DNA of 60,000 nucleotides from Schmidtea polychroa (lineage: Eukaryota): assembly GCA_044892525.1 (NCBI GenBank), contig CM097885.1, forward strand, positions 32,056,001-32,116,000, in the 5' to 3' direction. Positions 1 through 60,000 of the stretch are shown here, piece after piece. A program made the translations under genes and the position numbers. Position 1 is the stretch's first letter. Every line of letters begins with the position of its first letter. A model generated the notes under the pieces. That model was not told the DNA's origin. It saw only the letters and a list, made by a program, of their open reading frames with translations, and searched no databases.

Positions 1-158
1 ATGTTAACCTTTTTCTACAGTCATTTTCATCACTTTAAAACTAAATTATAAGTTTGTTTATAGATTTTCTTTGTTAAATTTGCATGTCATTTGCATTTAT
101 GTTGCAATTAATAAAGAGAAAAAAACAAATCTGACTAATACATTTATTAAATATAACA

Positions 159-569
159 TTAAAATATTTGTGAAAGTCTAGCAGACATAATTTTCCAAAT
201 AGGAGAATATACATCATTATTATCAACTTTATATCCCTGGATTGCAATTGTTATATACCAATTTTCATTTTCTTTGAAAGCGATTTCATCAAAGGAATCA
301 TAAAATCTTGCATATTTATTGTTGAACCATGCATGTTGATTACACGATAGATTCGAATCTATCCGTTTAAAAACATCATCAATAGTTTTGACATCAATCA
401 TTGAAAGCGTGCCGGATAAGAATTCAAATTTAGTTGGAATTAGCTTGACTGGTGCAACCAATTTCATATTGATTTCTTCTTTCAAAAAATACATTTTGTA
501 GTTGTGGAACATTTGAACTGGTTGTACCATTTCTTTAGGTTTTTCGGTGCTTGAAATTTTCTTGGTCAT
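159..569 (-). CDS. Polinton hypothetical protein, 136 aa; possibly OB-fold ssDNA-binding protein
   Basis: ATG-initiated ORF in the element; beta-strand-rich C-terminus (WYITIAIQGYKV...PIWKI). Function is a guess. Confidence 0.55.
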   Translation of the reverse strand: MTKKISSTEKPKEMVQPVQMFHNYKMYFLKEEINMKLVAPVKLIPTKFEFLSGTLSMIDVKTIDDVFKRIDSNLSCNQHAWFNNKYARFYDSFDEIAFKENENWYITIAIQGYKVDNNDVYSPIWKIMSARLSQIF

Positions 570-917
570 CGTGAATAATGAATAAATTTAAATGTTACAG
601 GGTTTTTATACCTTTGACTCATGCCTATCAACCAATCAGATTATAGCATGTCTTTGTTTAAATTGCATTCAAAATGCATTGATGTTGCATTGTCACATGT
701 TCTATTTACAGATTTATTATTAATGTTTAAATTATTACATGTTTTGATATATGTACAGATTTATTATTAATATGTTTCATTATTATTAATGTTTTTACTA
801 TTATTACTATTCATATTTCTATTACTATTACTATTACTATTATTATTATTATTATTTCAAATATAAAACACAATAAAACACAATAAAAAAGATAAAACAC
901 AATAAAAAATACATTTA

Positions 918-1331
918 TTAATAACCCAAATCTACAATCTTGGAGTAGTGAAACCTTCTCAGAGTTTTCACTAACTCCCATTCGACATATCGCCGATATC
1001 GATCGGCGCAACATGAGCATCCGATGATGCACTGGTACTCTGGCTCCATTTGTTTGATGGTTCTGTTAATCTTTATATCCCACAGAAACTGGTGAAATAC
1101 ATCCATGATTCGAATTTGAGTCGCATAGAATATCAGATCTGGAATGATCTCAGGTTCGCGATCCTTGATAATTTCAATAATTTGAGGATAATAATATTTT
1201 ATCCTTTTTATCATAACTTCTAAATATTTCTCTAAAATAATAAATAGTAAATAATGTGAAAAAAAAATTTTAAATTTACCGGAATCGTCGATATCTTTCA
1301 TGAGGGTTGCAGAGCTTGGTAATTTGTACAT
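918..1331 (-). CDS. Polinton hypothetical protein (~121 aa) with predicted 48-nt intron 1232-1279; Cys cluster CIIGCSCC
   Basis: ATG at 1331; G|GTAAAT donor and TTTTAG|AG acceptor remove an in-frame T-rich stretch. Confidence 0.6.
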   Translation of the reverse strand: MYKLPSSATLMKDIDDSGKFKIFFSHYLLFIILEKYLEVMIKRIKYYYPQIIEIIKDREPEIIPDLIFYATQIRIMDVFHQFLWDIKINRTIKQMEPEYQCIIGCSCCADRYRRYVEWELVKTLRRFHYSKIVDLGY

Positions 1332-1404
1332 AGTGTTGAAAAAATGAATTCTAAACAAAAACCGTTTGTTTAAATCAATCAATAACCAATTAGAAATTAA
1401 CCAA

Positions 1405-1842
1405 TTAGAAATCGACCAATGAAATTATCTCATTTCGAACATTGTCAACAAATTCTCTATACTCCAAATTTCTCAACCCCAACATGACAACCTTTCCACT
1501 AGCAAACACGTTGACACATATAGGGTTATATTTTAATAGTCTTAGTGCCGGAAACAATTCCGGTTCAAACATACAATCACATTTTTTCGACATGTTATAT
1601 AGATTGATACTATGTCCCATATCCATAGTAACGGTAATTGATTGGATTTTAATATTATTTATTCGATATTGTAATTTATTAATATCCAAAGGTTTCTTAC
1701 ATCCCATGATTCTGCATTTACCAGTCTTGAAAAATATTATCGGATATTTCCCACTTCTATCGATAATTTGCTGGGGTTTCCCTGGTGGGAACCTCATATT
1801 CGATACATCAAAATTTCCTCGATAATTTATATTTGCTAACAT
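1405..1842 (-). CDS. TATA-box-binding protein (TBP)-like protein, 145 aa
   Basis: Second repeat IKIQSI...FEPELFPAL...VNVFASGKVVMLG matches TBP FKIQNM...YEPELFPGL...LIFVSGKVVLTG; first repeat keeps IIFFKTGKCRIMG. Confidence 0.85.
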   Translation of the reverse strand: MLANINYRGNFDVSNMRFPPGKPQQIIDRSGKYPIIFFKTGKCRIMGCKKPLDINKLQYRINNIKIQSITVTMDMGHSINLYNMSKKCDCMFEPELFPALRLLKYNPICVNVFASGKVVMLGLRNLEYREFVDNVRNEIISLVDF

Positions 1843-1941
1843 TATTAAATCATTTATGAAAATTAGTCTTTATATACAAATTGAGCACGAGTTCATTAAA
1901 TCATCGAATATAAACAAATACACATTTATAAAATATTTGAA

Positions 1942-2568
1942 ATGGAATTAAGAAATGATGCTGTATACCAAATCGTTGGTCCGAGTGGTAGTGGAAAAAC
2001 ATTATTTGTTTGTAAATTACTAAAATCCAATTTATTCAAATCAAAATTCAACAGGATTTATTGGCATAGGGGTGCTGATGAAGAACATGGATTAACTCAA
2101 TCAAGTTTCTGTAAATTAAAAAACATGAAAATAGTAAAGGGATTCGATAAAAACTGGTCCAGCCGATTAAAGAAAGGCGATGTCATTATTATCGATGATT
2201 TGTATCAAGAAGCTAATAAAGAAAAAGATTTTAATAATTTATTTACAAAGATTAGCAGACATGTCGGTGTAACAGTTATTTTCATAACTCAAAATCTATT
2301 TCATCAAGGTGGGGCACATCGAACACGTAATTTAAATGTACAATATTTAGTCATTTTCAAGAATCCTAGAGATGCAACAGTGATTGATTTTCTTGCACGT
2401 CAAGCATACCCTAACAATCGTAATTTTCTTATCAGTGCATTTCAAGATGCTACAAAAATACCTCATGGATATATATTTCTTGATTTCACACAACAATGTC
2501 CCGATGATTTACGTGTAAAAACAGATATTTTCAACCCAAAAGGTGCCATGGTTTATAAACAAAGTTGA
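1942..2568 (+). CDS. DNA packaging ATPase (A32/FtsK-HerA type)
   Basis: Walker A GPSGSGKT, Walker B IIIDD, SRH...FITQNLF, FKNPRD motifs. Confidence 0.93.
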   Translation: MELRNDAVYQIVGPSGSGKTLFVCKLLKSNLFKSKFNRIYWHRGADEEHGLTQSSFCKLKNMKIVKGFDKNWSSRLKKGDVIIIDDLYQEANKEKDFNNLFTKISRHVGVTVIFITQNLFHQGGAHRTRNLNVQYLVIFKNPRDATVIDFLARQAYPNNRNFLISAFQDATKIPHGYIFLDFTQQCPDDLRVKTDIFNPKGAMVYKQS

Positions 2569-2586
2569 AAACCTCTATGAATAATA

Positions 2587-3120
2587 ATGTTTCTAAAAGC
2601 AAGGGTGAAAAATATTAGGAAATTAAGAAAAGGTATTAGAAAGACTATTAAAGTTCCAAAGGTTCCACCAACAACTAGTTATACACCATCTAAAAAACTT
2701 GTAACTGAAAATTTCTCTGCAATGAATCTTATTTCGAAAAATCCTAAACCTAAACGTAAAACCCGTAAAACCCGTAAAACCGGTAAAAAAGTAGTTAAAA
2801 ATCATCGCAGTTTTCCATTTTTTAATGCATTGTTAAAGGCTCCGAGTATGAAAAGAATGAATATATTGCAATCATTCCCAAATTTTGTTGTCGATGATTT
2901 ACTCAATATTATACTTAAAGTAGTCAAAGGCAAAATTAAAATCAGTAAATCAAAAAAGCATTTATTGAGCAAACATAGGAAACCTTTATTATCTTTAGTA
3001 AATAATAAAAATCGTAAGCAAATGAGGAAAATTATATATAAACAACAAGGTGGATTTATTGGTGCCTTGATACCTCTGGCATTATCATTATTAGGTGGAG
3101 TTGTAGGAAATCAATCATAA
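2587..3120 (+). CDS. Basic virion core protein precursor with adenovirus pX-like C-terminus
   Basis: Very K/R-rich; ends QQGGFIGALIPLAL, similar to adenoviral pX GGFLPALIP and an adenain-type cleavage site. Confidence 0.7.
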   Translation: MFLKARVKNIRKLRKGIRKTIKVPKVPPTTSYTPSKKLVTENFSAMNLISKNPKPKRKTRKTRKTGKKVVKNHRSFPFFNALLKAPSMKRMNILQSFPNFVVDDLLNIILKVVKGKIKISKSKKHLLSKHRKPLLSLVNNKNRKQMRKIIYKQQGGFIGALIPLALSLLGGVVGNQS

Positions 3121-3123
3121 ACA

Positions 3124-3351
3124 ATGGGTGCTAATCCTTCATTGCCCGACATTAAATTTAATTTTAAATCTTCTTGTTGTAATGGAGAAGATTTGGACGA
3201 ACCCAGAAGACGAAGCCGGTTTCGGTGGAGTGGCAAAATTAAACAAAAGAGTTCCGAATTCGAAAAAAGAAACCCAGAAGTGGTTATCAGATCAGCTTGC
3301 GTACAGTTTGAACAAACCAATGCGGAAAAGATTTCCAACAAGAGCGTATAA
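3124..3351 (+). CDS. Small putative N-myristoylated protein overlapping the integrase start in another frame
   Basis: ATG 3 nt after upstream stop, good context (ACAATGG), MGANPS motif, SSCC pair. Confidence 0.5.
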   Translation: MGANPSLPDIKFNFKSSCCNGEDLDEPRRRSRFRWSGKIKQKSSEFEKRNPEVVIRSACVQFEQTNAEKISNKSV

Positions 3352-3569
3352 AACATTTGGTATTGACGATTTATGGCAAATGGATTTGATGGAGATGATA
3401 CCATATTCGAAAATTAACAATGGGAATAAATATATTTTAACATGTATTAATGTATACAGCAGGTTTGCACGAGCAATACCAGTCAAGGCAAAATCTGCAG
3501 AAGAAATGTCCAAGGCAATTAATATTTTATTTAAAGATGGACATCCTAATAATTTGCAAACAGATTTAG

Positions 3570-3646
<77 letters not shown>

Positions 3647-4276
3647 TTAGGTAAAGAATTCTACAATAGCAAAGTTAAGCAAATCCTCGATAAACTGAAA
3701 ATAAATCACTACTCGGTACATTCTCAATACAAAGCTGCCCATGTTGAAAGATTTAATCGAACATTGAGAGATAGATTAAAGAAATTGTTCGTGCATCAAG
3801 GTAATAAAAAATGGGTAAATGCTTTACCGAAAATAATAACAAGTTATAATCATTCATCACATCGAGGACTGAATGGATTGAGACCGGTTGATATTACATC
3901 AAAAACACCATTATCTAAAAAATCTGTAAAAATTGCAAAACCTAAATATAAAGTCGGTGACCATGTTAGAATTAGTAAAATTAGTGCATCACCATTTATT
4001 AAAAATTTTGATACAAATTGGAGTGATGAAGTCTTTGTAATTTCAAAAATAAATACTAAACAGAATCCTGTAATGTATGTCATCAAAGACAATGATAATA
4101 ATATTGTACAGGGGAAATTTTATGAGCAGGAATTACAAGTCATTCCTCCCCCAAAAGTATTTAGAATTCAAAAAATATTGAAAACTAAAAAGGTCGGTAA
4201 GGATAAACAATACTATATCAAATGGCACGGTTATCAAAACCCGTCATGGATATCGTCAAAAGACCTAGTAAAATGA
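3182..4276 (+). CDS. Retroviral-type DDE integrase with C-terminal chromodomain; intron 3570-3650
   Basis: WQMDL, QTDLGKEF (restored on splicing), VERFNRTL, YYIKWHGY...SWI; ATG at 3182. Confidence 0.93.
3570..3650 (+). other. 81-nt GT-AG intron made of (ATT)n microsatellite
   Basis: TTAG|GTATT(ATT)n TTAG|GTAAA; removal deletes the poly-Ile tract and restores DLGKEF. Confidence 0.85.
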
Positions 4277-5277
4277 ATTTTTATATTATTTTACCTAGCA
4301 ATAGCTGTCCACTTATTCATCCAGATAATAAAGCCAGCAAATTCAGGGTCAATCTTCAAAATCCGATATATTTGGATAATAGCTGGGAAGTTGCTCTGTT
4401 GGATTTTACATTTGTATACCAAGCCTTTCCATTTTATAGTAAGGCTAAAATTGGATACAAAAAGAATGAGTGGCAGGATAGATTATTGTCTATGATCATT
4501 GATAATGCAGATGATGAAGTTCGGTTGTCTAACTCAACTGATCCAGCTGTGAAAATGTATATTAACCATTCATATATAGTAGTTGAATGTAAACATTATC
4601 CTTTTACTGTAAAATTTGATAGTTTGGAAATGGCAAAACGATTGGAATTAAAAACCCAAAGTCATAAAGTTCTTTCCGATAAATTCACTATGCTACGACC
4701 GGGATATTCCAAAACTGTACAGCGATTTGAACCAATTTTATTTACAGTTTCATATCCGGGTATAACGTCTGGTACATTTGAGTTCAAAGATAATTTATAC
4801 ATTTCGAAATTGGATGAATTACAGACATATTTAAAACAAAGTGGTTTATTTAAATCATTGGAAATATCAGACAGATTCAAATTCAGTTTGAATCCCGAAT
4901 TTACTGAAATTACTTTTGATGCAAATCTAATAAAAACATTAGGATTATCAAAAGCAACATATGCTCAAGATGATCAAGGTACCCTAGCTCCGAAAATAAT
5001 TAAACTTCACCAACAAATGTTCATCTATAGTAATATTGTTGATCCTGTAATTGTTGGCGATTCTTTGGTCCCACTCCTGAAATCTGTTTGGATTGAAAAA
5101 TATGAACATGATGAAGTAGTCAATATAAATATCGATAATCCCATGTATTTACCTGTGTCAACCTCATGTATAAACAATATAGAAATAAATATACGTGATG
5201 ATTCTGGTAAATTAATCGCATTTCCAAAAGATTCAAAAACTCATTTAACATTACATTTTCGTAAAGTAGATGGCTAA
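4273..5277 (+). CDS. Minor capsid protein (penton-like)
   Basis: MNFYIILPSNS...DNKASKFRVNL...WEVAL start and MFIYSNIV...VGDSLVPLL...IRDDSG...LTLHFRK end; ATGA overlap with integrase stop. Confidence 0.85.
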   Translation: MNFYIILPSNSCPLIHPDNKASKFRVNLQNPIYLDNSWEVALLDFTFVYQAFPFYSKAKIGYKKNEWQDRLLSMIIDNADDEVRLSNSTDPAVKMYINHSYIVVECKHYPFTVKFDSLEMAKRLELKTQSHKVLSDKFTMLRPGYSKTVQRFEPILFTVSYPGITSGTFEFKDNLYISKLDELQTYLKQSGLFKSLEISDRFKFSLNPEFTEITFDANLIKTLGLSKATYAQDDQGTLAPKIIKLHQQMFIYSNIVDPVIVGDSLVPLLKSVWIEKYEHDEVVNINIDNPMYLPVSTSCINNIEINIRDDSGKLIAFPKDSKTHLTLHFRKVDG

Positions 5278-5635
5278 TTCGGATATTATAAGTATGTATA
5301 GTGGTAGCCAATCTGGCGGTGAATTACCATATTTTATTGGTAAACAGTACGGATCAGGATGGTTGAGAACAATTGGTAGATTTGCACTTCCTATTCTTAA
5401 ACGTATTGGTAGTTTTGGTATGAAAACTGCTAAAGATGTTATTATGAATGAACAGAAAATATTACCATCTCTAAAATCAAATGCTTTAGCAGAATTAGGG
5501 AAAGTTTTACCCGGGGTTGCAGGTATGTTTCAAAAACCAGCTCCAGCTCCAGCTCATGCTCCAAAACGTAAAAGACATGGAATATCACGTATAAACAAAC
5601 GAATGAAAGGCCATGGAACTATATTTGCAAAATGA
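5270..5635 (+). CDS. Small structural protein, pVI-like (cleavage motif plus amphipathic helix)
   Basis: QYGSG followed by WLRTIGRFALPILKRIG; basic C-terminus; lies between the capsid genes. Confidence 0.7.
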   Translation: MANSDIISMYSGSQSGGELPYFIGKQYGSGWLRTIGRFALPILKRIGSFGMKTAKDVIMNEQKILPSLKSNALAELGKVLPGVAGMFQKPAPAPAHAPKRKRHGISRINKRMKGHGTIFAK

Positions 5636-6854
5636 TTTGTGGTAAATCTGAATTATGTATATTTGATAGACCGTCGCCCCAGGCTGTAATAGAATTTGGG
5701 GCGTTTGAGGAAGTTTTTCCAATGAATTCAATTACTGATAGTAGAAATGATATAGAGTTTTATATTAATGGTTCGCAAACTGAATATTTAGATTTGAACG
5801 ATACTTTATTGACTGTTCAGATCAAGGTTATAGATAAAGATAAAAAAGCTTTGGGTGATGCTGCTGATGCAATACCGAACAATTTCATGTTTCATACTCT
5901 TTTTAAAGATGCTGTGTTGGGATTTAATAATATCAAGATTGAAGGTGGTAATAATACATTCATTCACAAGGCTTTGATAGAAACTATTTTAAATTACAAT
6001 TCCGATACTAAAAATACATGTCTTACTCCAATGGGATATGCTGCAACCGACGATGAAAGAAAAAAGTGGATTAAAGGCTCAAAAACATTCACCATGTGTT
6101 CATCGTTACAACTCGATTTTATGGATCAACCGAAATATTTGCTTCCAGGAGTTAATGTCCACATTCGATTGAAAAGATCCGATTCTGCACTAACTCTTAC
6201 TAGTGCTACAGGTGCACCAATATGTCAATTAGTTGATGCAAAATTATTGGTGAGAAGAGTTCGAGTAGACCCCTCAGTATTAGCTGGTCATCAATTGGGT
6301 CTTAATTCAAAACATGCAATTTATCCATTAAAACAAAGGAAATTGTACAATTTGCTATTGCTAAAGGTGCTTCATCATTCTATAAAGAACAAATATTTGG
6401 TGACAGAAGAATGCCTAATTTTATTCTGATAACATTTCAAAGTGAAGCACAATATAATGGATCATATACTGCGTCCAGCTCAATTTTCAAAAACTTTGGT
6501 GTTACATCATTGACTTTGTCGAAAAATACTGATTATAGAGAAACATATATTCAAGATTTCGAGAATGACAATTACTGCGCGACATATATGCAGAGTATTG
6601 TTAGAAATCTCGGTTATTTAGATAAAAATTTGAATTGCGGAATAACACTAGAAGAATTTAAAAGCAAATACCCATTTTTTACATTTGTTTTAGCCCCTGA
6701 TTTTGATTTAAATCAAAGTCAATTACCTCAAAATGGAAATTTACGACTGGATATAAAGTTTGCAAAAGCTATTACTGAACCAGTACATGTTATAATATAT
6801 GGAGTATTTGAAAATGAAGTTCAAATTACTGCAAATAGAACAGTGTTGGTATAA
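5632..6854 (+). CDS. Major capsid protein (double jelly-roll) split by one frameshift at A-run 6330-6333
   Basis: KSELCIF, IEFYI...YLDLNDT, QPKYLLPGV, GNLRLDIKF...VIIYG motifs; adding one A joins the two ORFs (YPLKTKEIVQFAI...RRMPNF). Confidence 0.88.
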
Positions 6855-7266
6855 ATGTATACAGAAACACAAAAAGTTATCATGGAGTAAGTTGTTTTTT
6901 ATACTCTGGATTTATTTAAATAGTTCTGTTCAGGTCAATAAAATCGGAAAACAGATATTGGGAAATGAATTTGTTGGAGTTTTTCCTCTTGATAAAATTC
7001 CATATTTGAGCAATAATCAAGCAATAATCGTCAATACTCAATCGTCTCATCTTGGTGGAGAACATTGGATAGCTATATATGTGAAACCTGGTAATATATT
7101 CGTGTTCGATCCTATGGGTTTCTATTACCCAGCTTTGTTGATATCAAAACTACAAACAATGGGAAAACCTATTGTGTATAATAAAACTATGTTTCAAAAT
7201 CCTTTGACCCAAACATGCGGTCAACATTGTTTAGCTTGGTTATTGTACAAAAAATTTGATGTTTAA
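6855..7266 (+). CDS. Adenain-like cysteine protease; predicted 37-nt intron 6887-6923
   Basis: Catalytic GEHW, FDPMG, Q...CGQHC; ATGGA|GTAAGT...AAATAG|T gives MDSVQVNKI in frame. Confidence 0.88.
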
Positions 7267-7324
7267 AGAAAAAAAATGTTTAATAAATTTGATGTTTAAT
7301 AAATGTATCCTTTCCTTTGTTGTT

Positions 7325-7358
7325 GTGTTATTATTATTAATATTATTATTATTATTAA

Positions 7359-7407
<49 letters not shown>

Positions 7408-7485
7408 ATTATTAATATTATTATTATTGTGAAAAATATTATTATTTTTAATTAATTTTATTATTATTCTAATAAATATTATTAT
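7325..7485. repeat. (ATT)n-rich low-complexity tract
   Basis: Direct reading. Confidence 0.9.
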
Positions 7486-7769
7486 TTGTAACATAAAGAC
7501 TGCCTTTGCATGAGGCATGCACAGTGCAAGTTAACAAAGGCATGACTAACAAAGGCAGTCACATGTAATTCTGACTGATTTACATTACATACATGCATGC
7601 GTGTGATTGGTTGAGAGAGTAAAATATTCAATGTATATGTGTGTGTGTCTATATTCTCATTGGCTGGGACAGGAAAATATTCATTCTCTTTATAAACATT
7701 GACAAATCTAAAATTTGTCACAATTATTTCAAAATTTTTCAAATTTCAATTTCAATTTTAAAAATCTAA

Positions 7770-8441
7770 ATGGCTAACAATAATAAAAATGGAATTCTAA
7801 GAAATCTTTTGACGACAATGGGTAATTTATTTTATTTTATTTTATTATATTTTATTTTATTATTTTAGAACCATTCGATTGGTACGATGTAACGGAAGAT
7901 GACTCGATATTAACAGTGGATAAGATCTTCGGTAAATTTATTATTATAATTTTTAATAAATTAATTTTTTTTCAATTCAGAAAATGCTTCAAATAGCGAC
8001 GATGATGTCGTCTTTATCGGGGAAAGTAATGCTCCTAATAAGATCTTTGGTAAATTTATTATTATTTTTTTATTAAATTATTTTTTTTTTCAATTCAGAA
8101 AATGTTTACAATAGCGACGATGATGTCGTCTTTATTGGGCAAACTGATGCCCCTAATTATGCCCCTAATTATGCCCCAGTTCTCAAAGAAAAAAGTAAAT
8201 TTTATTATTATTTCTATTAAATTAATTTTCATTTCAGAAAATGTTTTAAATGTTGATATTGACGAAGAAGAAATTAATGTCCTCGCATCGGATGATGGTG
8301 AAATCTGTGAGAATGATGGGCAAATCTCATCGGATGATGATCAAATCTCAGAGAATGATGGGCAAATCTCATCGGATGATGATCAAATCTCAGAGAATGA
8401 TGGGCAAATCTCTGAGAATGATTCCGACATGGAATCAAAAT
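7770..8441 (+). CDS. Multi-exon acidic protein with repeated SIM-like motifs (exons ~7770-7821, 7869-7931, 7981-8048, 8099-8194, 8238-8441; 3' end unresolved)
   Basis: Four phase-1 GT-AG introns give a continuous MANNNKNG...EPFDWYD...SDDDVVFIGE...SDDDVVFIGQ...EEEINVLASDD...; further donor GTAAG at 8442. Confidence 0.7.
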
Positions 8442-8549
8442 GTAAGAAATATTTATTTTTATATATATATTTTGTTTTTTATTTATATGTTAAATTTGTA
8501 ATAACTTATTTAAATATTTTGATAAAAAACTTTTTTAAATATTTTAATA

Positions 8550-8870
8550 AAAATTATGATGAAACTTCTGAAGAAAATGATTTTATGATTTATAATGAAA
8601 ATATACCGAAAAATTATGAAGAAAAATGATTATATGTTTTATAAAGAAAATGATGAAAATATGACGAAAATTATGATGAAGAAAATTATGAATTTATGAT
8701 GAAGAAAATAGGATGAAAATCAATTATGATGAAAATGATTTACAACCAAAATTATGATGAAAATGATTTATGATGATATAATGAAAATGAATTATGATGA
8801 AAATTATTTATACCGAAAATTATGAATTTATGATGAAAATGATTTATGACCAAAATTATGATGAAAATGA
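8550..8870. repeat. Degenerate tandem repeat (AAAATTATGATGAAAATGATTTAT-like)
   Basis: Direct reading. Confidence 0.7.
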
Positions 8871-9044
8871 TTATACTAAGTTTCTGAAAGTTATTATTAT
8901 CAAAATATTTAAAAAGTGATTACAAATTATGGTTATAAATCCTTGTAGTTTGCAATGTGCATCTACAATAGTTAAAATAATAATAATAATAATATTAATA
9001 ATAATAATAATAATAATATTAATAATAATAATAATAATAATAAT

Positions 9045-9594
9045 GTAGTCTACAGTGAGCATGTAGCTACATAGTAGTCTGCAGTGAGCATGCAGCTACT
9101 TTTCTTTTATATAATAATAATAATATATAAATAATAATTAGACCCCGTCTACAGTAGTTTGCAGTAAGCATGCAGCTACATAGTAGTCTGCAGTGAGCAT
9201 GCAGCTACTTTTCTTTTATATAATAATAATAATATAAATAATAATAATAATAATATAAATAATAATAATAATAATATATAAATAATAATATAAATAATAA
9301 TAATAATATATAAATAATAATCAGACCCTGTCTACAGTAGTTTGCAGTAAGCATGCAGCTACATAGTAGTCTGCAGTGAGCATGCAGCTACTTTTCTTTT
9401 ATATAATAATAATAATAATAATAATATAAATAATAATAATAATAATAATATAAATAATAATAATAATAATATATAAATAATAATATAAATAATAATAATA
9501 ATATATAAATAATAATCAGACCCTGTCTACAGTAGTTTGCAGTAAGCATGCAGCTACATAGTAGTCTGCAGTGAGCATGCAGCTACTTTTCTTT

Positions 9595-9636
<42 letters not shown>

Positions 9637-9662
9637 TATAAATAATAATCAGACCCCGTCTA
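9045..9662. repeat. Array of paired palindromic TAGTCTGCAGTGAGCATGCAGCTA-type units separated by (AAT)n
   Basis: Four higher-order repeats, eight palindrome units including variants. Confidence 0.9.
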
Positions 9663-9903
9663 CTAAAATCTCTCTAATATTCTATCGAATATATTAACCT
9701 ATTTTCTATAATGATTTATCATCATTTGTTATTTAATTCAAATGAACTATATAACAAATGATGATAAATCCTTGTAGAAGTAACAATTAGTTTTCTATAT
9801 AGAAAAAAAAACAATAAAATTTTAATTTTATTATTTAACAGGTATACTATACCCGAACTATTGTCAAACATCAATTGGACATAGTGATAAATGTCATAGA
9901 ACA

Positions 9904-12900
9904 ATGACAAAATATTACCGAAAAAAGTTTAATTCGGTCAACTTTTTTATATGCCCCAAATGTGTAACGAGCGAAAAAATAAAATATAGGGAATTTTTTA
10001 ATAAACATCATAATCACTTAGGGCAATTTTCGATATCAAAAAATGTTTTATTTAAAAAAATAAATAAAAAATTAAATAAAAAAAAAAATTAGAAAATAAT
10101 TTACAAAAAAACTTACAAAAAAATTTAGAAAATAATTTACAAAAAAATTTGCAAAAAAATATTAAAAAAAATAAAAAAAATATTATTAAAGATTCAAATA
10201 TTAAAAAAGATGCTATTAAAAAAGATACTATAAATATTATTAAAAAAGATATTATAAATATTAAAAAAGATTCTATTAAAAGACCTGCTGGTTTAATTAA
10301 AAATTGCATTCCTAATAAATTATCGCGACCTGAAGTGATAGTCATCAGCAAAGATGAATGTGTAGCTTCAACATCGTTTACACACCAAGCACCCATTACA
10401 CAACACGCACCCATTACACAACAAGAAGTGATAGTCATCAATGATGAATGTGTAGCTTCAACGTCTTTGAACATATGCCAAATAGGCGGCTCTTTGTTTG
10501 AACCTATGGTAGAATCCGATTTGAACGGATCGCGTAAAACTTTAAGATTTGATATTAGAAATCAAAACTTAGTAAAAATAGCCCTAACATCAAAAATTGA
10601 AGATAGATTAATACAGGAAATAGAAAAGATGGGCAATGTAAAAATTCAATTCACAATTTTAATTAAATTTGAAAAAGATGGGGAGATCCGGGATAATTAT
10701 TTTTCGAACAATGCTCAAGTTTTTACATCAAACTTTATAAACGAGGGGGTGAGCAAATTAAATGAAAAGATTGAGCAATTCACCTATTTAGGAAGCGGGT
10801 GGCGAGTAATGAATATTTTAGAAATAGATTTTATTTTAACGAAATACGCACCCGTCAGTAGATTATCCGGACATAGCTATATAAAAACCCCATCAGCATT
10901 AAAATTAAAACATGCAATAATTAATGTAAAAAACAACGACCATAAGTGCTTCTTGTATAGCATTCTTGCACTTTTAAAAAGAGAAGAAATAGGTCGTAAT
11001 CACCAAAGAGCCGCCAAATATATAGAATTTTTACCTCTATTAAATTATGACGAAGACACTGATTGCCCGATGAGGCTATGCAACATTCCCAAATTTGAAA
11101 GAAAAAATAGAGATTTAAACTTGAGCATAAACGTTCTGTCTTATAATCCAGCCAGTTCTGATTTAGATATTTCTGAGGATTATGTAGCTCACCACCCTCA
11201 TCTTAATATAGTACATCGCTCCAAGGTTATAGACGGTATACCAATTTATTTATTACTTTTGAGTAATAAAGATAAATATCATTATACAGCCGTGACAGAC
11301 TTGGACAAATTAATGAATTGTCATGAAAATGAAAATGTAAATGTTCAAATAAGGTGTAACTGGTGCCCACATTGTTTAAATGGCTTTAGATATAAGAATG
11401 CTTTCGATCAGCATGTTGCTCTATGCTGTAAAAATCAGACTGGCACAACTTTGTATACACTTCCTAAAAATAAAGATTTATTATTCACAGATTACGCAAA
11501 AACAGTTACACCTCCCTTCGTAATTTATGCCGATTTTGAATCGGTTTTACCAGAACATGAAACATATCATCAAATACATTTACCCATATCAGCAGGTCTT
11601 TTATTAATTAATAATTATACACACACTAAATTTTATTATTATTTTTTTGGACCTAATTGTATTTTGGATTTTTTGAGGAAAGTGGAGGAAATTGCTGTCA
11701 CAATTGTCCTGCCATATTATGATCTTGAAGGTCGTAAAGGTATGTCTACTTTGTCATTTGCTCAGGAGCGTGCCTTTCGATCTTCCACTATTTGTTATTT
11801 GTGTAAAAAATCTATTATTAATCCTGTGAGAGATCATTGCCATTTTACAGGTAGATATGTCGGAGCGGCATGTAGGAAATGCAATGTCTCTCGCAGGATT
11901 AATAAATTGTTACCTGTTGTCTTTCATAATTTACGAGGCTATGACCTCCACCATATTTTAAAACATGGTCTCAGTGATTTTCCCCTTTGGGAACTTAATA
12001 TTATACCTACCTCTACAGAAAAATTTATATCTTTAATTGCATATATTAACAAATTGCCTGTTCGTTTTATTGACAGCATGCAATTTGTTAATTGTTCTTT
12101 AGCAAAAGCTGTGAAAACCTTAACTACTTTTCCTTTGACTTCGTCTGTCTTTCAAGGGTCGATGATTCACTCTAAAGGTATCTTTCCATATAATTTCGCC
12201 ACTTCTTTAGATGTTCTTGAATCGACTTTAGAATTACCTCCTATTTGGTCTGATGTTACGGAAGATCAGTACGCTGAGGCTCAACTAATTTGGAATCAGC
12301 ATAACTGTAATAATTTGTTAGATTATATGTTAATCTACCTAAAATTGGACGTATACCTCCTCGCAGATTATTTTCAGCAATTCCGCGGTAAGGCAATTGC
12401 TTACAATGGTCTGGATCCTCTTAATTTCTACGGGATTCCCGGTATGTCATGGGCCTCAGCGCTTATGACATTAACGGAACCCATAGAACTTCTGCAGGAC
12501 ATGGAAATGTATAATTTCTATGAGGGAGGTATCCGGGGTGGGTTAACATTTGTTAACAAACATTACACGGCTACTTCAGATGATACAGAATTATTGTACA
12601 TTGATATAAATAATCTGTATGGTTGGGCTCTTAGCCAAAATCTTCCGTATGGTGATTTTTCTTGGGTGAATAATAACTTGAATGATGTTTTACTTGAATG
12701 TATGAACACGGATATTGATAACCTTCCATATGGGTATACTATGGAGGTCGATATCGATATTCCGGAATGTGTGCATGACTTTTTGAATGATTTTCCGCTT
12801 GCGCCGGAAAAGTTGTGCCCGCCTAATTCAAAAGTTGAGAAGCTTATGCTTACGCATTGGCCAAAGAGGAACTATGTTCTTCATTGGAGGCTTCTCAAAT

Positions 12901-13898
12901 TGTATATAGAATTAGGTGCGGTTGTTGTAAATATTCATAGGTGTATAAAGTTTAAACAAGGACCTATCTTTAAATCCTACATAGACACCAACACCACTTT
13001 ACGATCTCAGTCTACTAGTGAGATATATAGGGACTTGTTTAAATTGTATAATAACTCTCTTTACGGTAAATCGGTTGAAAATTTGAAAAAAAGAATGAAT
13101 TTGAGGTTGTGTAATTCATCCGAAAAGATGATAGTATACTCCTCAAAGCCGACTTTCAGAAAGTCCATAAGAATCGATAACGATCTGATTGCGGCACATT
13201 TGGAAAAAGATGTGATTTGTTTAGACAGACCTAGCTACATTGGTCAAACAGTACTAGATCTATCTAAACTGCGGATGTACCAGCTCCAATATATTGATTT
13301 GGAGAAGTACAGACGCCAATATAAATGTATCATAAATATTATTGCCGGTGATACCGACAGTTTCTTTTTGGAAATAAAAAATTTAAAATTAACAACTTTA
13401 TTACCTCAGATGATCTCTGATAATTTATTGGATACGTCAAATTACGATCCAACCCACCCCTTGTATAGTAGGAACCTTGACTCGGTCATCGGGAAGTTTA
13501 AAGATGAGAGCAAGGGATTAGGGTATTCTGAATGGGTTTTCTTACGCCCTAAATGTTATAGTCTTTTAGGTAGTAAGGAAACGGTAAAAGCGAAAGGGGT
13601 TAAATTACCAGGGACATCAATAAATCACGAATCATATCTAAATTGCTTTCATTCAAATCAGGTGATTTCTGTACCGCAGACTAGAATAGGTACTAGAAAT
13701 CACCAACTTTTTACTTTTAAAAATTCGAAAATTGCCCTAAGTAATAATGATGATAAGCGCGCGTGGCTAGGAAAAAACTTAAGTTACGCATTTGGGCACT
13801 ATTTAGGAGTTGACGAATTAAGCGAATATGATGAGGAATTCGGTCCAGCTCCAAGTCCCAGTTTTGACGACAGCGAATGGGACGAAGATCAAATTTAA
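9904..13898 (+). CDS. Protein-primed family B DNA polymerase with endonuclease VII-like insert; frameshift in A11 run 10078-10088
   Basis: YADFES, DHCHFTGRYVGAACRKCN, FHNLRGYD, YIDINNLYG, KLYNNSLYGK, GDTDS, LRPKCY. The PolB frame has no early ATG and joins the 9904 ORF (CPKC...HHNH) if the A-run gains one A. Confidence 0.93.
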
Positions 13899-14118
13899 AT
13901 AGAAAAAACTTTATATTTTTGATTTATAAAAACTTGTATAGTGATTTCATGATTTATAAAAAATTGTATAGAAACTTTTATTTAAAAACTTGTACAAAAA
14001 CCTGTATATTGTATAAAACTTGTATTTATATATACATATTCAATAAAATTTTTAATCAGATTTTTTAAGTATTTGGTGTTTTATTATAATTTTTTTATAT
14101 TTAATGGTGATTTTTATA

Positions 14119-14255
14119 TAGTCTGCAGTGAGCATGCAGCTATATGTTTTTTTATATAGTCTGCAGTGAGCATGCAGCTATATGTTTTTTTTATATAGTC
14201 TGCAGTGAGCATGCAGCTATATGTTTTATATAGTCTGCAGTGGGCATGCAGCTAT
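14119..14255. repeat. Four tandem copies of TATAGTCTGCAGTGAGCATGCAGCTATA palindrome
   Basis: Same unit as 9045-9662; fourth copy has GTGGGCA loop. Confidence 0.9.
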
Positions 14256-14296
14256 ATCAATGAAATAATAATAATAATAATATTAATAATATTAAT

Positions 14297-14333
<37 letters not shown>

Positions 14334-14341
14334 TTAATAAT

Positions 14342-14387
<46 letters not shown>

Positions 14388-14465
14388 CTTTAAACAGGTT
14401 GCAAAGGGTACTAGTCATGCTTATTATTGTTATACCTTTGATGGTTACATTTTGAAAGCTCTATT

Positions 14466-14897
14466 TTGATTTTTAATAAATCAATATGTGTTTGTCCGAA
14501 TACAGCCAAGTTGATGGATATTTTATATATTCTCGATAAACCAAAATGGTCAAAGCATCCAGGAAAAAGAATATCTCAAAGATTGGAGAATTTAGAAAAC
14601 AGTTATGAACTAACATTTGAATATATACAAAATATAAAAATTAAATTGATTGATCATATTGAGGTTTTCAATAACTCTATTACTGAAAATAAAAAGAATA
14701 TGAAGATTATTGATAAGAAGCATGATTATTTGTTAAAAAAGATTGAATTATTATTAAGAGAAATTCAAACAATCAAAGGATCAATAGAATATCTGAAAAT
14801 CAATTCAACGTTACCAATTTCTAACAATAATGCTGCGAATAGAAGTGCATCAATATTTAGTTTACCTTTGTTAATTTTACATTATTTTATTGTTTAA
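14466..14897 (+). CDS. Hypothetical coiled-coil protein with hydrophobic C-terminus; start uncertain
   Basis: 143-codon ORF with heptad pattern, followed by AATAAA. Confidence 0.45.
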   Translation: MIFNKSICVCPNTAKLMDILYILDKPKWSKHPGKRISQRLENLENSYELTFEYIQNIKIKLIDHIEVFNNSITENKKNMKIIDKKHDYLLKKIELLLREIQTIKGSIEYLKINSTLPISNNNAANRSASIFSLPLLILHYFIV

Positions 14898-15022
14898 ATA
14901 AATGTATGTTTTGTTGATTTGTTGAGCGTGACCAGTACCCTTGTGAGCATTACCCATAGGGGGACAAAATATTTTGTCGGATAGACTCAGAGTATATAGA
15001 CTCGGTGTATATAGATTAATAC

Positions 15023-15112
<90 letters not shown>

Positions 15113-15236
15113 GATATATGGCTCATTCGAAAGGTCTTGGATTGAGCTTTAAAATGAGCTATCGATTATTAATTTTCGTTGGCGGGAACTTTGAAAAAAT
15201 TAAAAATAAAATAATAATATTTTTAAAAATAATAAT

Positions 15237-15900
15237 ATGACCTTGATGAGTCATCGCGATGACTCATATGACCTTGGGAATGACCTTGGATGAGTCATGT
15301 GACCTTGAAAATGACCTTGAGTCATAGGATGACTCAGATGACCTTGAAAATGACCTTGAAAATTTTGATGAGTCATCGGATGAGTCATATGACCTTGAGA
15401 ATGACCTTGATGAGTCATAGGATGAGTCATATGACCTTGAGAATGACCTTGATGAGGCATAGGATGAGTCATATGACCTTGAAAAAAATTTTCAAGGTCA
15501 AATGAGTCATACTATGAGTCATATGACCTTGAAAATGGCCTTGATGAGTCATACTATGAGTCATGGTCTTTGTTTCAATGACCTTGATGAGTCATAGGAT
15601 GAGTCATATGACCTTGAAAATTTTTTTTCAAGGTCAAATGAGTCATACTATGAGTCATACGACCTTGAAAATGACCTTGATGAGTCATGGTCTTTGTTTA
15701 AATGACCTTGCGAAATTTTTTTGACCTTGATGAGTCATATTATGAGTCATATGACCTTGAAAATGACCTTGGTGAGTCATCGGATGAGTCATGGTCTTTG
15801 TTTAAATGACCTTGAAAAATTTTATGAGTCATAGGATGACTCATGTTCTTTGTTTCAATGACCTTGATGAGTCATATGTCTTTGTTTAAATTTGACCTTG
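15237..15900. repeat. Subterminal array of TGACCTTG and TGA(G/C)TCA motifs, likely within the Polinton TIR
   Basis: About 25 copies of each motif by manual count. Confidence 0.9.
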
Positions 15901-15995
15901 AAAAAAAAATGTACTTTTAGACTTAGAATATTTTTGAAAATCTTACCGACGGGGGGGGGGGGGGTACTGTGCCAGCGGTGCCCAATCCATCTACT

Positions 15996-18030
15996 AAGGA
16001 TATGACACTTTTCAGGGTTTATCCTAAGACCCACCTTTCCAATTTTGTCCAGCACTTCATTTAAAACTTCGTAGCGATAATTGATCGTTTCTATAAATAT
16101 CAAAATATCGTCTAGGTATACTGCCGCATATCTCGTACTCATTAATACTTTTCCCATCAGTTCCTGAAACGTACCTGGTGCCGCTGCTATTCCAAATGGC
16201 ATTCTGTTAAAACAGTATTGCCCTGATTTGGTTGAAAACGCCGTTTGTAACTTTGATTCATCTTCTAATTCTACTTGATAATATGCATTTCCAAGATCTA
16301 TCGAACTGAAATACTTTGCTGCACCCAATTTATCTAACATCTCTGCTATATTCGGCATAGGGAACGCCTGTCTGTTACTAGGTTTAATTGCCTGAAATCA
16401 AGGCATAATCTGATATCTTGCTTTTCTGTCTTCCAGGCGCATATTAATAGAGTGTTCCATGGCAAATTAAACTTTTTGATAATATTGTTTCCCATAAGTT
16501 TTTTATCGCTTCATCTATTTTACCTTCCAAGTTGACTGGTTGTCTCCAAGGTTTAATATTTAAACAGTTTCTATTTTATGCTTCACCTTTGTGTAGCCAA
16601 TATCCCATTTATCAGCCATAAAAACATTTTGATTCTTTTATATAATGTTTAGTAGTATCGAGTTATTTATCTTTAAAGTATTCTTTGTTCTTTGAAATAT
16701 GTGCTCTTGCTTCGTTTTCTTGACCTCTTCTACTGACTACTTTAATTGTATACCAAATTGTTTTTGCAACTCTATACCACCAATTACCTCTGGAGTCTTA
16801 CTATCGTAAACTTTACCCTTCGTTTCCTGCCATTTATTCCTATTTCTAATATTGTCTTACCTTTCCTTTCTAAAACACTATTATTTGCACATCTCAATGT
16901 TTTAGTTGTTGTTGTTAGTTCTACATCTTTAAGTTTTTCAATTTTGCTCCAACTCATGACATTTACTGTAGCTCCTGTATCTTCTGCTCTTGTATTCTAA
17001 TAGTTACACTTGGTCGGCTTTGCATTTTATCATAACTAATAATATCATTTTTCCATTCATCTAATGTGAGTATTTGTATTTTGTCTCTTTATCTTTCTGC
17101 AAAATCCTTTTTTATGAATCTGTTTACTTTCTTTATTACATTATTTTCCTCGTCCGTTACCTCTCTGAATCTTTCACATCTTTTTCTATAATACATGATA
17201 TTTTACTTTTATTATAATAATTAATAATTTGGGAGTCAGCATCGCTGTTTAATACACTGCCCCGACTATCTCCTTTTTTATCGGGGCTTTGATATTTGGG
17301 TATTCACTGAATTTATCTTCTATTCTTTCATTCATCACTTGGTTCGTCTATGAATGCTACGTATCTATTGTCTCCTTCTCTTGTATCCTTTCTCATTCCT
17401 CGATAACCATTCCTTGCGTCGTATCGATCGTGTTGTCTACCAAAAGTCTCATTGATTCTCCGATATCTCATTCTCTCCATATTTGTACAACAATCTGCCT
17501 CTTTATGTCCTCCCAAGCTACACCTCATACACCTTATTTTTTGACAATCTCTTCTCACATATCCCGGGGTACCACACGCATAACATTCGACTACCTTTCT
17601 ATACATCTGTGGACACTGACTTCTTATATGTCCTTGTCTTTTTGTTAATATTGAAATCTTAAATGTTAGTTTCTTTCTGATAAAAGATATTAAAAGACTA
17701 GTTACGAACTTTTGTCTCTTATCAGTACTATTTTGGAGACGCGAAAGTTTCTCTTTGCACCAGGTAAGCATACTATATTGTTGAGTCAACTTTATTGCAT
17801 ACTTTCTCTGGTACACTGAATATCACATCACTTGCTTTTTAACTTGGTCACGGAGTTCGAAGTTTGCTGAAACTTTGCATATCGTCGTATCTGTATATAT
17901 AAAACTTTTATTGTTGTTCCTTTAAAAACAATTTCGAGAGACGGGTGACGCTTGTAGCTGAAACCGTCTGGAGTCAAAGTTGAGCTGCACCAACATGTGA
18001 ATTCACATTCAATAGTTACCATTGTGTCAA
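15996..18030 (-). mobile_element. Decayed Ty3/Gypsy LTR retrotransposon (gag zinc knuckles, RT), interrupted by the Polinton
   Basis: RT motifs YFSSIDL...RMPFG...YLDDILI...NPEKC; CYACGTPGYVRRDC and CMRCSLGGHKEADC at 17328-17816. Confidence 0.88.
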
Positions 18031-19800: not shown

Positions 19801-21679
19801 ATGGATAAATACGTAACTAGCTTTAAAAGAAAATCAAATGAAGCTGAAGCTGAAGCAGAAGCAAAGAGCGAAAATAAAGAAGAAAATTTCATAAGCATAT
19901 CTTCACAAATTAGTAAACTTAAATATAGAAAATATGACCCAGTATACTTATCATTTGGATTTACATATAAGATTATTAATGGAAAAGAGCATCCATTGTG
20001 TTTATTGTGTATGAATACTTTGGCCTCAGACAGCATGAGGCCAAATAAGTTAAAACGACATCTGAAAAAGTACATGGTGATCACGTTGGTAAGACGAAAG
20101 AACTTTTCAAAAAAAGTTAGAAAGTTTAAGTAAACAACAAGAAATGTTTCTAAAGACCATGTCTATATCACAAAAAGCATTGCTTGCGTCATATAAAGTT
20201 TCTTATAGAATTGCCAAATGCAAAAAACCACATTCGATAGGTGAAACTCTTGTGTTACCTGCAGCCATTGATATGATAGAAACTATGCTTGGAGAATCAT
20301 ATGCTGACCAACTTAAAATAATCCCCCTTGCAGATAACACGGTTGGAAGACGAATATCAGATTTATCCGAAGATCTTTGCGACCAATTAATAGAAAAAGT
20401 AAAACTATCTTCTTTCGCATTGCAAGTAGATGAAGCTACTGATGTTATTAAGGATGCACACGTGATAATATATGTAAGATATGTTGTTGAAACCGATATT
20501 AAAGAAGACATGTTGTTCTGCAAACCTATTGAATTTAATACTACAGCAAAGGAAGTTTTTAAAATCATTGATATTTTTTTTAAAGAAAATGGCATTCTAT
20601 GGGAGAACTGTGTTGGGCTATGCACAGATGGAGCTCCATCCATGGCTGGAAAAAACGCTGGTCTACAGGCACTAGTTCGAAAGGTGGCTCCTCGTGCAGT
20701 TTGGACACATTGCATGATTCATAGACAATCACTTGTATCAAAAAATATGAATGAAGATCCCCTGGCAGTATTTGAAATTGTTACAAGAGTTGTAAATTTT
20801 ATTAAAAATAGCCCATTAAGAGCAAGGATTTTTGCAAAATTGTGTGATGACATGTGTTCAGAATATAGATCACTTCTATACTATTGTGAGGTACGATGGC
20901 TTTCACGTGCTAAAGTACTTTAAAGGGTGTTTGAGCTAAAAGATGAAATCGCTATATTTCTTAGTGATAATAATAGAGACGAAGCACATTTGTTTTTTGA
21001 TACGAAATTCCTTGTTAAACTTGCGTATTTAGTTGATATTTTTCAAAAACTTAGTATTTTAAATAAATCAATGCAAGGGGCTCAATTTCATACTTTTACG
21101 CAGAAAGACAAGATCACTGCATTTATCAAAAAAATAGAACCGTGGATAATATTTTTAAAAAATAATAACTTTGACATGTTTCCAACTTTTAAACTTACCT
21201 GTCTCGCTGAAGAAATAGAAGAAAGTAAAATTTTTATTAACAATCATTTGACAAGCCTACAGAAGCAATTTTCGTTGTACTTTAAGGATCTAGACATGTC
21301 CAAATATGAATGGATTAGAAATCCATTTATGATTGAGGAGTATAATGATTTTAACCTTACGACAGCAGAACAGGAAATGATTATTGATTTATCTAGTGAT
21401 AGCACATTAAAGCAGATGTTTTATGATGTAAATAATATTGTTACATTTTGGCTAAGAGTAAAGGACGATTTTCCCACTTTGGCAAATAAAGCTTTAGAAA
21501 TTTTATTGCCATTTGTAACATCTTATTTGTGTGAAACTGGCTTTTCTACAGTAGCTGTTCTTAAAACGAAGCATCGATCTCAATTAATGATAGAAAAGGA
21601 ATTGAGAACCGCGATTTCTTCAATGATACCACGATTTGAGAAGATTTGTGCAGGAAAACAAGCTCAAATATCGCATTAA
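19801..21679 (+). pseudogene. ZBED5/Buster-like transposase with frameshifts near 20070-20110 and stop at 20921-20923
   Basis: BED finger CLLC...LKRHL, FALQVDEATD, CTDGA, HCMIHR, VRWLS, YLCETGFS. Confidence 0.92.
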
Positions 21680-33521: not shown

Positions 33522-34741
33522 TGTTTAATTATAACTTCAAACCAACATTAATGTTTTACAAACAAAAGATATAATAAATTTAATTAAATAAATTAAATAA
33601 ATTGTTTGTTGGTATTTAAAAATATTTTAACATATTACTTAAAACAATCAGTAGACACTTGGTAACAAATATTTGTTAATTATCTTTTTAATTATAGCAA
33701 ATTGGAATTATTTCCTTATTAATATTTAGGAATACGTTAAGAAAGTAAATATTAAATATATAAGTAGTAAATAGTAAGGACTCCAGCGCACTTTCAAGGT
33801 CATGGAATATCAAGATCAAATATAGACCAATCGAATCATTTATTTTTTAAATTAATATTTTATTTAATTACTTCTTTTTAATTTTTTTTCTTTTTAATTT
33901 TATTAATTAATTATTTTATTATGTTTTATTTTAATTACTTACGCTATTTAATTATTATTATTATTTTTTTTAATTTTCTTAATTAATTATTTTATTATGT
34001 TTTTATTTTAGTATTATTTTATTTATTTATTATTATTATTATTATTTTTTTTTAATTTTACATTTACATTATATTCTAACAAGAGGTAAATTATAACAAT
34101 AATATTTCAATTTGAATAAAATTTTAATTAGTAATTATTTAATTTGAATAAAATTTAATCATATTAATCATATGGGCGAACTCGAGAACGGGTAAGAATT
34201 TTTTTATACAGTTTTTTTTAGAAAATAGAGCACTAGTTACTCTTTAGTTACTTTTAAAAAGTGAAATTTCACTGCTGATGTCTAGAAATCACTCTTTTAA
34301 TAGAGTGAAGCCTGGTCAGTCGAAAAATTTCACTTCTATATTGATATACAGTTGGAAACAATCTAAGATTATTGCAAGCACGGTTAGCGAGAAAAATTTA
34401 GTAATTTACTAAACACATTTCTCTACTATTTTATCTCGCATAGAAGCAGTATTTTCTCACTGCAAACAAATTTTGTACTTTTAATCTAATCAAAAGGTAA
34501 TTTTGCAGTATTATTATAGATACCCACATACATTTGTGCAGTGTCAATTCGATAGTAGCACTTACTTTATCGAAAATTCTAGTACTGCCTCACTCATAAG
34601 CTAAACATATGTTTGAACACTGCTGCTCTTCATATATTGAGACAGTTAACCACTTGATAGTATCTTTTTATATCAGAACATTATTACTTAAAGTAAATTA
34701 ATAATAAAATCAATTTATTTAAATTTCATCAAGTTGCCGTC

Positions 34742-44475: not shown

Positions 44476-44720
44476 AAAGGACTGTAATGGTGGCTAATAA
44501 TATATATATGTTTTCAAATAATGATTTATTATAATTCAGAAAAATTGGAAGATGAATTCAAAAAGCTTACAAAAGACGAGGAATTGATGTATAAAGAAAT
44601 GAATGATGAATACCATTTAGAAAGTAAATTTTTCATTATCTTGGTTTTAAGTAAATTAGTTATAATTTAGATATTAAAAAGAAAAATCCTGAAGCTGATT
44701 ATGTTGGAGCGTGGCGATAA
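39248..44720 (+). CDS. Predicted small secreted peptide precursor, 73 aa (exons 39248-39335, 44540-44623, 44671-44720)
   Basis: Signal peptide MKIWYFAICMFLLMNFAFC; phase-1 GT-AG junctions; acidic spacer; KKK then NPEADYVGAWR. Confidence 0.6.
39626..39692. repeat. (TA)n microsatellite
   Basis: Direct reading. Confidence 0.95.
42106..42191. repeat. (AAT)n microsatellite
   Basis: Direct reading. Confidence 0.95.
44262..44385. repeat. Perfect 46-bp inverted repeat with 32-nt spacer, followed by (ATT)n
   Basis: 44262-44307 is the reverse complement of 44340-44385. Confidence 0.9.
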
Positions 44721-51378: not shown

Positions 51379-52026
51379 AGAATTGAGTACCGCTTTATTT
51401 TATTAATTTAATTTATTTTCTTTGTTTTCGAGTTATTTCTTCTTACTTTCTTTATTAAAATTATGTTTTTATTTATTTTCCTTAATTTTCTTAGTATTTA
51501 CTATATTTTACGTTGTTTTCTGTCATTCTATTGTCTTATTTTAATTTTTCTCATCTTTATATTTTTGTTTTAATTCTTATTTTCTAATTATTGTTTTTCT
51601 TATGTTTTATTCTATTTTATTTGTCAATTTATTTGTTTTTATTTTTTATTTTATTTTAGTTCAGTTTCCCTAATTCCCAACTACCCTTCGACTCAGCCCA
51701 ACAAATCACTCGGGGACCCATCAAAATTGCGTCCCGCAATTGCATAGCTATCTTACTTCAGACATTCATAAAAAGGATATATCGAAATAATTATACTACA
51801 ATAACAAAAACAATTTTATTCTAAGATATAGGTCAAAACAAGACCAAGCAAGTATCACTTAAGGTGATAGTTTGTATATACAATAAAAGTTTCTACATAT
51901 GATAACACCAATATTTGAGTTAGAGTTTATGAACTGTTAACCATTTGATGCTTCTGCTGGCGGTTGTTGGTTGGTTTGGGTATTGATGTTGAGATAGGTC
52001 TGACTGTTAGAATGCGGCTGGATTGG

Positions 52027-52596: not shown

Positions 52597-52640
52597 TCAT
52601 TATTATACATTCATTACAATTGGTTTTAGTGACCCTTAAT

Positions 52641-53348: not shown

Positions 53349-53515
53349 ATCTGTAATATGTACAGTTAATGGTGCGCTATAGTGCGACTTATACTTATGC
53401 ATTTATATAAAATTTTAATAGTTCGGGTTACAGTCCCTTGAATACTTTTACAATACTTTAATTTTTTTGTTTGGGATATACGTCCCGATTTTTGTTTTTA
53501 TCTTTTTATTCACCC

Positions 53516-56153: not shown

Positions 56154-56238
56154 TCTATAATTATATGTACATATAGTCCTTATCGATACAGGTTCGATAT
56201 TTTATTTACAATTATTTACATTTTAAGCTAGGTTTGGT

Positions 56239-59970: not shown

Positions 59971-60000
59971 TCTGTAGGTTTGCGAACGTGTGGTTAATGT

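Follow-up and report, generated by a model that had tools for sequence, protein, structure and literature searches.

Nuclear DNA viruses and DNA transposons commonly contain introns. For Polintons, or Mavericks, intronless core open reading frames (ORFs) have been described as a regularity: intact vertebrate Mavericks are reported without introns (PMC8097293), and nematode Mavericks have intronless core genes, with introns in their cargo (10.1101/2022.07.12.499685). The locus described here is a Polinton/Maverick occupying positions 1 to ~15968 of a 60,000-nucleotide stretch of Schmidtea polychroa DNA (contig CM097885.1, positions 32,056,001 to 32,116,000; the whole stretch is "the window"), its left end lying beyond the window. 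Predicted introns in two of its core genes, those for the integrase and the protease, violate this regularity, and the contrast with the described intronless core genes drawn in a first-pass annotation of the window was correct. The element shares with vertebrate and Caenorhabditis Mavericks the hallmark set of a protein-primed B-family DNA polymerase (pPolB), an RVE integrase, a packaging ATPase, an adenain-like cysteine protease and a double-jelly-roll capsid, the last tested on a relative, L026. It differs from them in its predicted GT-AG mini-introns, in the protease, the integrase and perhaps a leader of pPolB, and in the TBP-like gene of its clade.

Other introns are on record in elements of this kind. 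Dinoflagellate introner-bearing elements (PMC11957031) also have spliceosomal-type introns inside Polinton-like elements, but theirs are repeated, intron-generating transposons, mostly acquired after integration; the introns here are AT-rich and belong to no dispersed family in the window, and one appears to be inherited by position clade-wide. Group I introns likewise occur in the genomes of cryptophyte Polinton-like viruses (PMC12220804), but they are self-splicing rather than spliceosomal, 309-376 bp long and located in a small non-core gene. Ginger1 transposases (PMC2836005) have a related DDE integrase with 1-4 mostly canonical introns, some of them conserved in position, but they are simple cut-and-paste elements without capsid, protease or polymerase. 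We found no account of spliceosomal introns that keep their position in core genes of Polintons, most subscription papers, Repbase and supplements being outside the search; nor do the passages searched in PMC11296320, PMC8502044, PMC5718144 and 10.1101/809541 contain anything on spliceosomal introns in these genes.

We consider it likely, with a probability of roughly 0.8, that the element belongs to a TBP-carrying Polinton clade that uses ordinary U2-type mini-introns in some of its genes. Taken together, the sequences point to a securely predicted intron that a whole clade conserves in one of its core virion genes, to a second intron that was probably gained recently, and to a possible spliced leader on the polymerase. 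The candidates are seven segments: 1232-1279 (minus strand, 48 nucleotides [nt]) in a small gene, 3570-3650 (plus, 81 nt) in the integrase, 6887-6923 (plus, 37 nt) in the protease, and 7822-7868 (47 nt), 7932-7980 (49 nt), 8050-8098 (49 nt) and 8195-8237 (43 nt), all plus, between a series of acidic exons. As the first-pass annotation had it, all seven begin with GT and end with AG; each also has a T-rich 3' end. A mechanical mini-intron scan of 918-8441 recovers six of the seven, missing the protease segment under a stricter setting, and dinucleotide shuffles of the region contained a mean of 0.11-0.72 segments, six being reached in 0 of 200 at each of three block sizes. The scan rules were fixed after the introns were known, so that the test is not blind and is supportive only. 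The same scan on the other 44 kb of the window gave three matches.

The seven segments are not equally secure, and they would represent at most five independent origins because three of the four in 7770-8441 are paralogous. Four runs aligned to 1-8900, all as contigs and none recorded as RNA, contained no spliced read, so that removal of the predicted introns by the host spliceosome is inferred. None of the 15 contig joints listed, out of a set with 274 more, matches a predicted intron; the deepest run dominated, the repeat at 3561-3656 was skipped, and the joints bear neither on splicing nor on the presence of the integrase segment in other copies. One contig of run X2 continues colinearly into the protease intron, the pattern expected of DNA or unspliced RNA. 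The copy number is very high (83,007 contigs of a single run align to 1-8900), and other copies differ in length at 9 listed places (26 further rows exist), of which three fall in predicted introns, five in other non-coding DNA and one in coding sequence. Among places within gene bodies the excess in introns has P 5e-4 when reckoned by length and 0.044 when reckoned by homopolymer share.

The intron of the adenain-like protease gene (6882-7266, plus strand; Peptidase_C5, E 4.8e-6) is very likely real. Exon 1 is only 5 nt long (6882-6886) and exon 2 spans 6924-7266; the phase-2 intron between them opens with a GTAAGT donor two bases past the start codon and has a 1-nt length variant in other copies. 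Protease production would require splicing, because the unspliced frame stops two codons past the start and the downstream frame contains no ATG before the catalytic region; a further in-frame ATG lies at 6855. Removal of the intron restores the homologous reading frame, as it does in the integrase. A metagenome scan provided 50 related loci with shared gene order, 8 of which include the protease start, and six of these (L007, L008, L010, L014, L015, and L026) have an intron at the same site, 37-47 nt in length. L014 and L015 are near-identical, which leaves five independent loci. All six share one layout, with ATG, two bases, GTAAGT, a T-rich interior of differing sequence, and AG at the same codon position, and both donor and position are invariant in all seven aligned sequences. 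This combination of conserved position and diverged interior, present in 6/8 loci for the protease intron, is found in 0/44 for the integrase segment.

The proteases of L034 and L038 start without an intron. In trees of the integrase and of the N-terminal half of the capsid (12 rows per tree, with midpoint rooting for display purposes alone), L034, L038, and L017 fall apart from the window and the loci that bear the intron, with supports of 98/96 and 100/100, protease state being scored in rows other than L002, L004, and L017. Since relatives at ~50-60% protein identity share the protease intron, it should be older than the window's family. It appears to have been present in the common ancestor of the clade, the site being kept while the interior diverged; with the trees unrooted, a single gain in that ancestor is the simplest reading, given the intronless proteases elsewhere. 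Sixteen database proteases, sorted by eye, comprise four that read through intron-like sequence at this site, three with late starts, two ambiguous cases, three with direct starts and four that are uninformative. Further intron-like matches, located after the protease gene of L014 and L026 and at 1303-1342 of L004, gave no clear open frame and were left uncounted.

The integrase gene (3182-4276, plus strand) encodes an RVE integrase with a chromodomain and is divided by the candidate intron at 3570-3650, an 81-nt GT-(ATT)n-AG insert with an (ATT)25 core. Three residues separate the conserved D from EF in 119 of the 120 listed homologues, compared with 30 in the window; the 27 extra residues are thus missing in all but one, and removing the 81 nt restores the homologue spacing. 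This protein sample is biased toward unsplit ORFs, the DNA loci less so, and there the segment is missing in 44/44 related loci that span the site. With the insert in place the Pfam rve match (E 1.4e-5) stays below cut-off, and PF00665 is found in all 120 listed homologues. An exact look-up found 3/10 proteins, none informative on the integrase junction. The segment is flanked by an 8-nt direct repeat containing AG/GT, a site that is unduplicated in 5/44 loci, including the nearest tree relative. Tandem duplication of an AG/GT site is a described route of intron gain (PMC3265369). As in that route, the integrase segment lies between two copies of an 8-mer that contains AG/GT, and its removal leaves a homologue-like protein; the interior differs in being a microsatellite, not a recognisable duplicated exon, and the mechanism would be drawn from one case. 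We regard the segment as probably an intron, and as a recent lineage-specific gain that may have arisen by AG/GT-site duplication followed by ATT microsatellite filling; it could also be a copy-specific insertion. Of the claim that Polinton core genes here hold real spliceosomal introns, the protease part is thus well founded and the integrase part less secure. A small ORF starting with Met-Gly (3124-3351, plus), with an N-terminus that recurs across many related loci, overlaps the integrase start out of frame.

Five acidic exons follow the protease (7770-7821, 7869-7931, 7981-8049, 8099-8194, and 8238-8441, plus strand). The four introns between them are all phase 1 and none has a length divisible by three; the internal exons are multiples of three, and the exons are stop-free in the running frame. 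Three of the introns are 81-88% alike, flanks included, and the exons were presumably multiplied by tandem exon-plus-intron duplication. That these introns are genuine is very likely. The fifth exon ends at a phase-1 donor (8442), and further intron-like signals stand at 9780 and 9841 before pPolB; none of these figured in the first-pass annotation. The stretch from 8442 to 9841 (plus) contains tandem repeats along with a decayed acidic repeat; it also offers two T-rich acceptors (8646 and 9841) and an alternative donor (9780). Alone among four listed candidate acceptors, 9841 opens a long phase-1 frame (82 codons). The Cys/His-rich exon that it opens (9842-10092, plus; in this copy its frame differs from that of the main pPolB ORF) resembles the N-terminus of the L007 pPolB (pairwise E 4e-6, 14/48 identical), and an Atlas search with it returned sub-0.9 leads only. 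The L026 pPolB gene has three phase-1 introns (45, 53, and 49 nt) and open internal exons, and its 5' part includes an exon that is acidic. Moreover, a TATAAAC box at 7691 precedes 7770 and none precedes 9758. Because of the 9841 acceptor with its L007 likeness, the introns of the L026 pPolB and the placement of TATAAAC, what had been counted as a fourth intron-bearing gene may instead be the spliced 5' leader of pPolB, a linkage to which we give even odds.

The small gene (918-1331, minus strand) has an in-frame candidate intron that is 90% AT. A word search found no small-gene homologue, an Atlas search gave no usable match, and the one HMMER match, of 44 aa, leaves the junction uncovered. 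Outside support for this intron, which we think reasonably likely, comes solely from a 1-nt length variant inside 1232-1279 in other copies.

Once integrated, the element would be transcribed in the nucleus, and the host spliceosome would remove its short, intron-defined introns. Planarian Polintons are reported to be de-repressed under smedwi-2 RNAi (PMC8532177). With no reverse-transcription step in the life of such an element, introns once gained would be inherited, so that the protease intron would mark the clade and other introns would be private to lineages, as with that of the integrase here and those of the accessory gene and the pPolB leader in L026. Any intron would have to suit the host spliceosome, and capsid size would also favour short ones. 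The intron-length distribution of Schmidtea mediterranea peaks at 45-85 bp (PMC13594981); introns of 47, 48, 49, 49, and 81 nt fall inside this peak, and those of 43 and 37 nt fall below it. Such a fit speaks for compatibility only, and the proposed adaptation to a host mini-intron system does not follow from it. Outside the Polinton, at 44540-44670 (plus), an 84-nt candidate exon precedes a similar GT-AG candidate of 47 nt (44624-44670).

Several observations weigh against an intron-using clade as we describe it. This copy is decaying, with the capsid and pPolB frames broken. The protease-only tree (21 rows, without P0177 of the window's family and without P0186, P0188, and P0191, which are chimeric or partial) supports the split between intron-bearing and intronless forms at just 89/94; and P0178, 61% identical to the query and placed beside the window in that tree (86/91), starts directly at the canonical position, as either a spliced transcript or an intron loss would. 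For the polymerase leader, 1.4 kb of repeats and frame-switching acidic DNA after 8442 make the exon chain to pPolB untraceable, the nearer acceptor at 8646 competes with 9841, and 9758-9779 could also serve as a short alternative first exon. No homologue spans the small-gene junction. The segments of the small gene and the integrase are both in frame and free of stops, so each could be a translated insertion, and long ATT/AAT runs are common in the window (11), which makes a copy-specific expansion plausible. The last points lead to a mixed case, in which the protease and acidic-exon introns are real, whereas the other two segments are AT-rich insertions peculiar to this copy of a decaying element and only mimic introns; the lack of the integrase insert in all 44 loci and the frameshifts elsewhere in the copy agree with this. 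Yet only the integrase run among the 11 has GT and AG at its edges, plus the duplicated 8-nt AG/GT site, and the 1-nt variant inside 1232-1279 would break the frame if that segment were translated. We hold the mixed case to be unlikely, at about one chance in four. The idea that all seven segments are chance GT-AG pairs in AT-rich DNA (the window is ~70-80% AT) or assembly noise gains something from scan rules set with the introns in view, but it is hardly credible against same-site conservation in relatives, the shuffles, frame continuity, and the recurrence of the protease segment in near-identical copies from independent assemblies.

Nor do the introns look like host introner transposons inserted after integration, for which dinoflagellate Polinton-like elements offer a precedent (PMC11957031): within 1-16500 of the window they resemble one another only inside the tandem module, the protease intron is common to divergent elements by position and not by interior, and the other 44 kb of the window holds only three such segments. 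We judge this origin very improbable. A regulatory role is harder to set aside, though still doubtful: the start-proximal protease intron would be kept to gate or dose virion maturation, with a spliced polymerase leader acting similarly. Its position and donor are invariant in 7/7, retention would bring an immediate stop (a peptide of two codons), and the capsid gene lies directly next to it. However, the strongest donor consensus, placed at phase 2, creates the stop as a side effect, a donor variant in P0192 reads through, P0178 may have lost the intron, and plain inheritance would account for conservation in a DNA element that lacks reverse transcription. Splicing-based regulation is possible and unneeded for the data. 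An element of a TBP-carrying clade with ordinary mini-introns in some genes is thus the reading that we prefer. The element itself is clearly a Polinton/Maverick, present at high copy number in an animal genome that is rich in AT.

No mini-intron was found in the ATPase, capsid, putative minor capsid, TBP-like or catalytic pPolB ORFs. The TBP-like gene (1405-1842, minus strand; PF00352, E 1.5e-15) is intron-free, and TBP-like genes occur in 7/50 related loci (L004, L006, L007, L022, L026, L034, and L040). An accessory ORF (159-569, minus) is intron-free here and has an L026 homologue with an intron-like segment (L026 1745-1787). On the plus strand are the A32-like packaging ATPase (1942-2568; Pox_A32, E 3.6e-7; intron-free), a basic protein conserved in the clade (2587-3120), and the intron-free putative minor capsid gene (4273-5277), which was assigned by position and had no match in Pfam and PHROG searches; L001, L002, L003, and L007 carry the latter as two tandem copies. 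A small conserved ORF (5270-5635, plus) lies upstream of the major capsid protein gene (5632-6854, plus), which in this copy is frameshifted into two overlapping frames. The intact capsid relative in L026 is 54-61% identical to it, and a model of that protein (predicted local distance difference test score 63) has a double-jelly-roll fold, with best matches to iridovirus, PBCV-1 and mavirus capsids (E to 1e-13). The pPolB ORF (10080-13898, plus; PHROG DNA polymerase, E 1.1e-19) has an intron-free catalytic part and is 45-48% identical to the L007 and L026 polymerases; compared by sequence with solved structures it gave no match. An endonuclease-VII-like insert in it (Pfam Endonuclease_7, E 0.0013, below cut-off) recalls the pPolB2 group (PMC10748475).

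Plus-strand TATAAAC boxes stand at 1909, 2554, 3037, 5169, 5590, and 7691, upstream of several genes, and another is at 10736. Tandem-repeat arrays at 9040-9650 and 14110-14390 form related direct repeats flanking the pPolB ORF (~81% over 180 nt), and a 76-nt palindrome (87%) at 9704-9779 runs exactly up to the candidate 9780 donor. The probable right terminus (15230-15968) has palindromic repeats followed by a G-run abutting a reverse-transcriptase fragment, a putative terminal motif. The insertion site is apparently a retroelement reverse-transcriptase gene (15855-16397, minus strand). No relatives of the element were found in viral_contigs. Several related elements have a small gene after the protease that is missing from the window, and cargo ORFs of related elements (L007 222-719; L010 952-1263; L019 190-705 and 1545-2732) resemble, by eye, a ubiquitin-conjugating enzyme, dual-specificity phosphatases and a RING/TRAF-like protein. 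Elsewhere in the window are remnants of two decayed hAT-type transposases (20093-21679 and 34697-36437) and, on the minus strand of 52000-60000, A-skewed ORFs that encode RING, MATH, and ankyrin domains, like a Burro-type giant retroelement (PMC6431247); these ORFs and the AT content would suit a dugesiid planarian host.

The weight of these results is limited by how common introns are in DNA transposons and nuclear DNA viruses, by the intronless state of most core ORFs here, and by the predicted nature of the splicing. Intact Mavericks are routinely recognised and annotated as sets of intronless ORFs, and intron-bearing clades would in this way be taken for degraded elements whose proteases and polymerases are truncated. 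An integrase intron in a very high-copy family could let intron gain by AG/GT duplication be tested across copies. A bolder and rather unlikely extension is that the clade has come to rely on the host spliceosome for core genes of both virion and replication, with an ancient start-proximal intron gating the protease, a modular spliced polymerase leader assembled through phase-1 exon duplications, and introns still arising at AG/GT sites by duplication and microsatellite filling; if true, latent-to-lytic control would run partly through splicing, and the many copies of the family would offer a natural series in which to follow intron birth. A position-conserved intron in a core virion gene would in itself mean a long history of nuclear, spliceosome-dependent expression, and would provide a marker for the clade.

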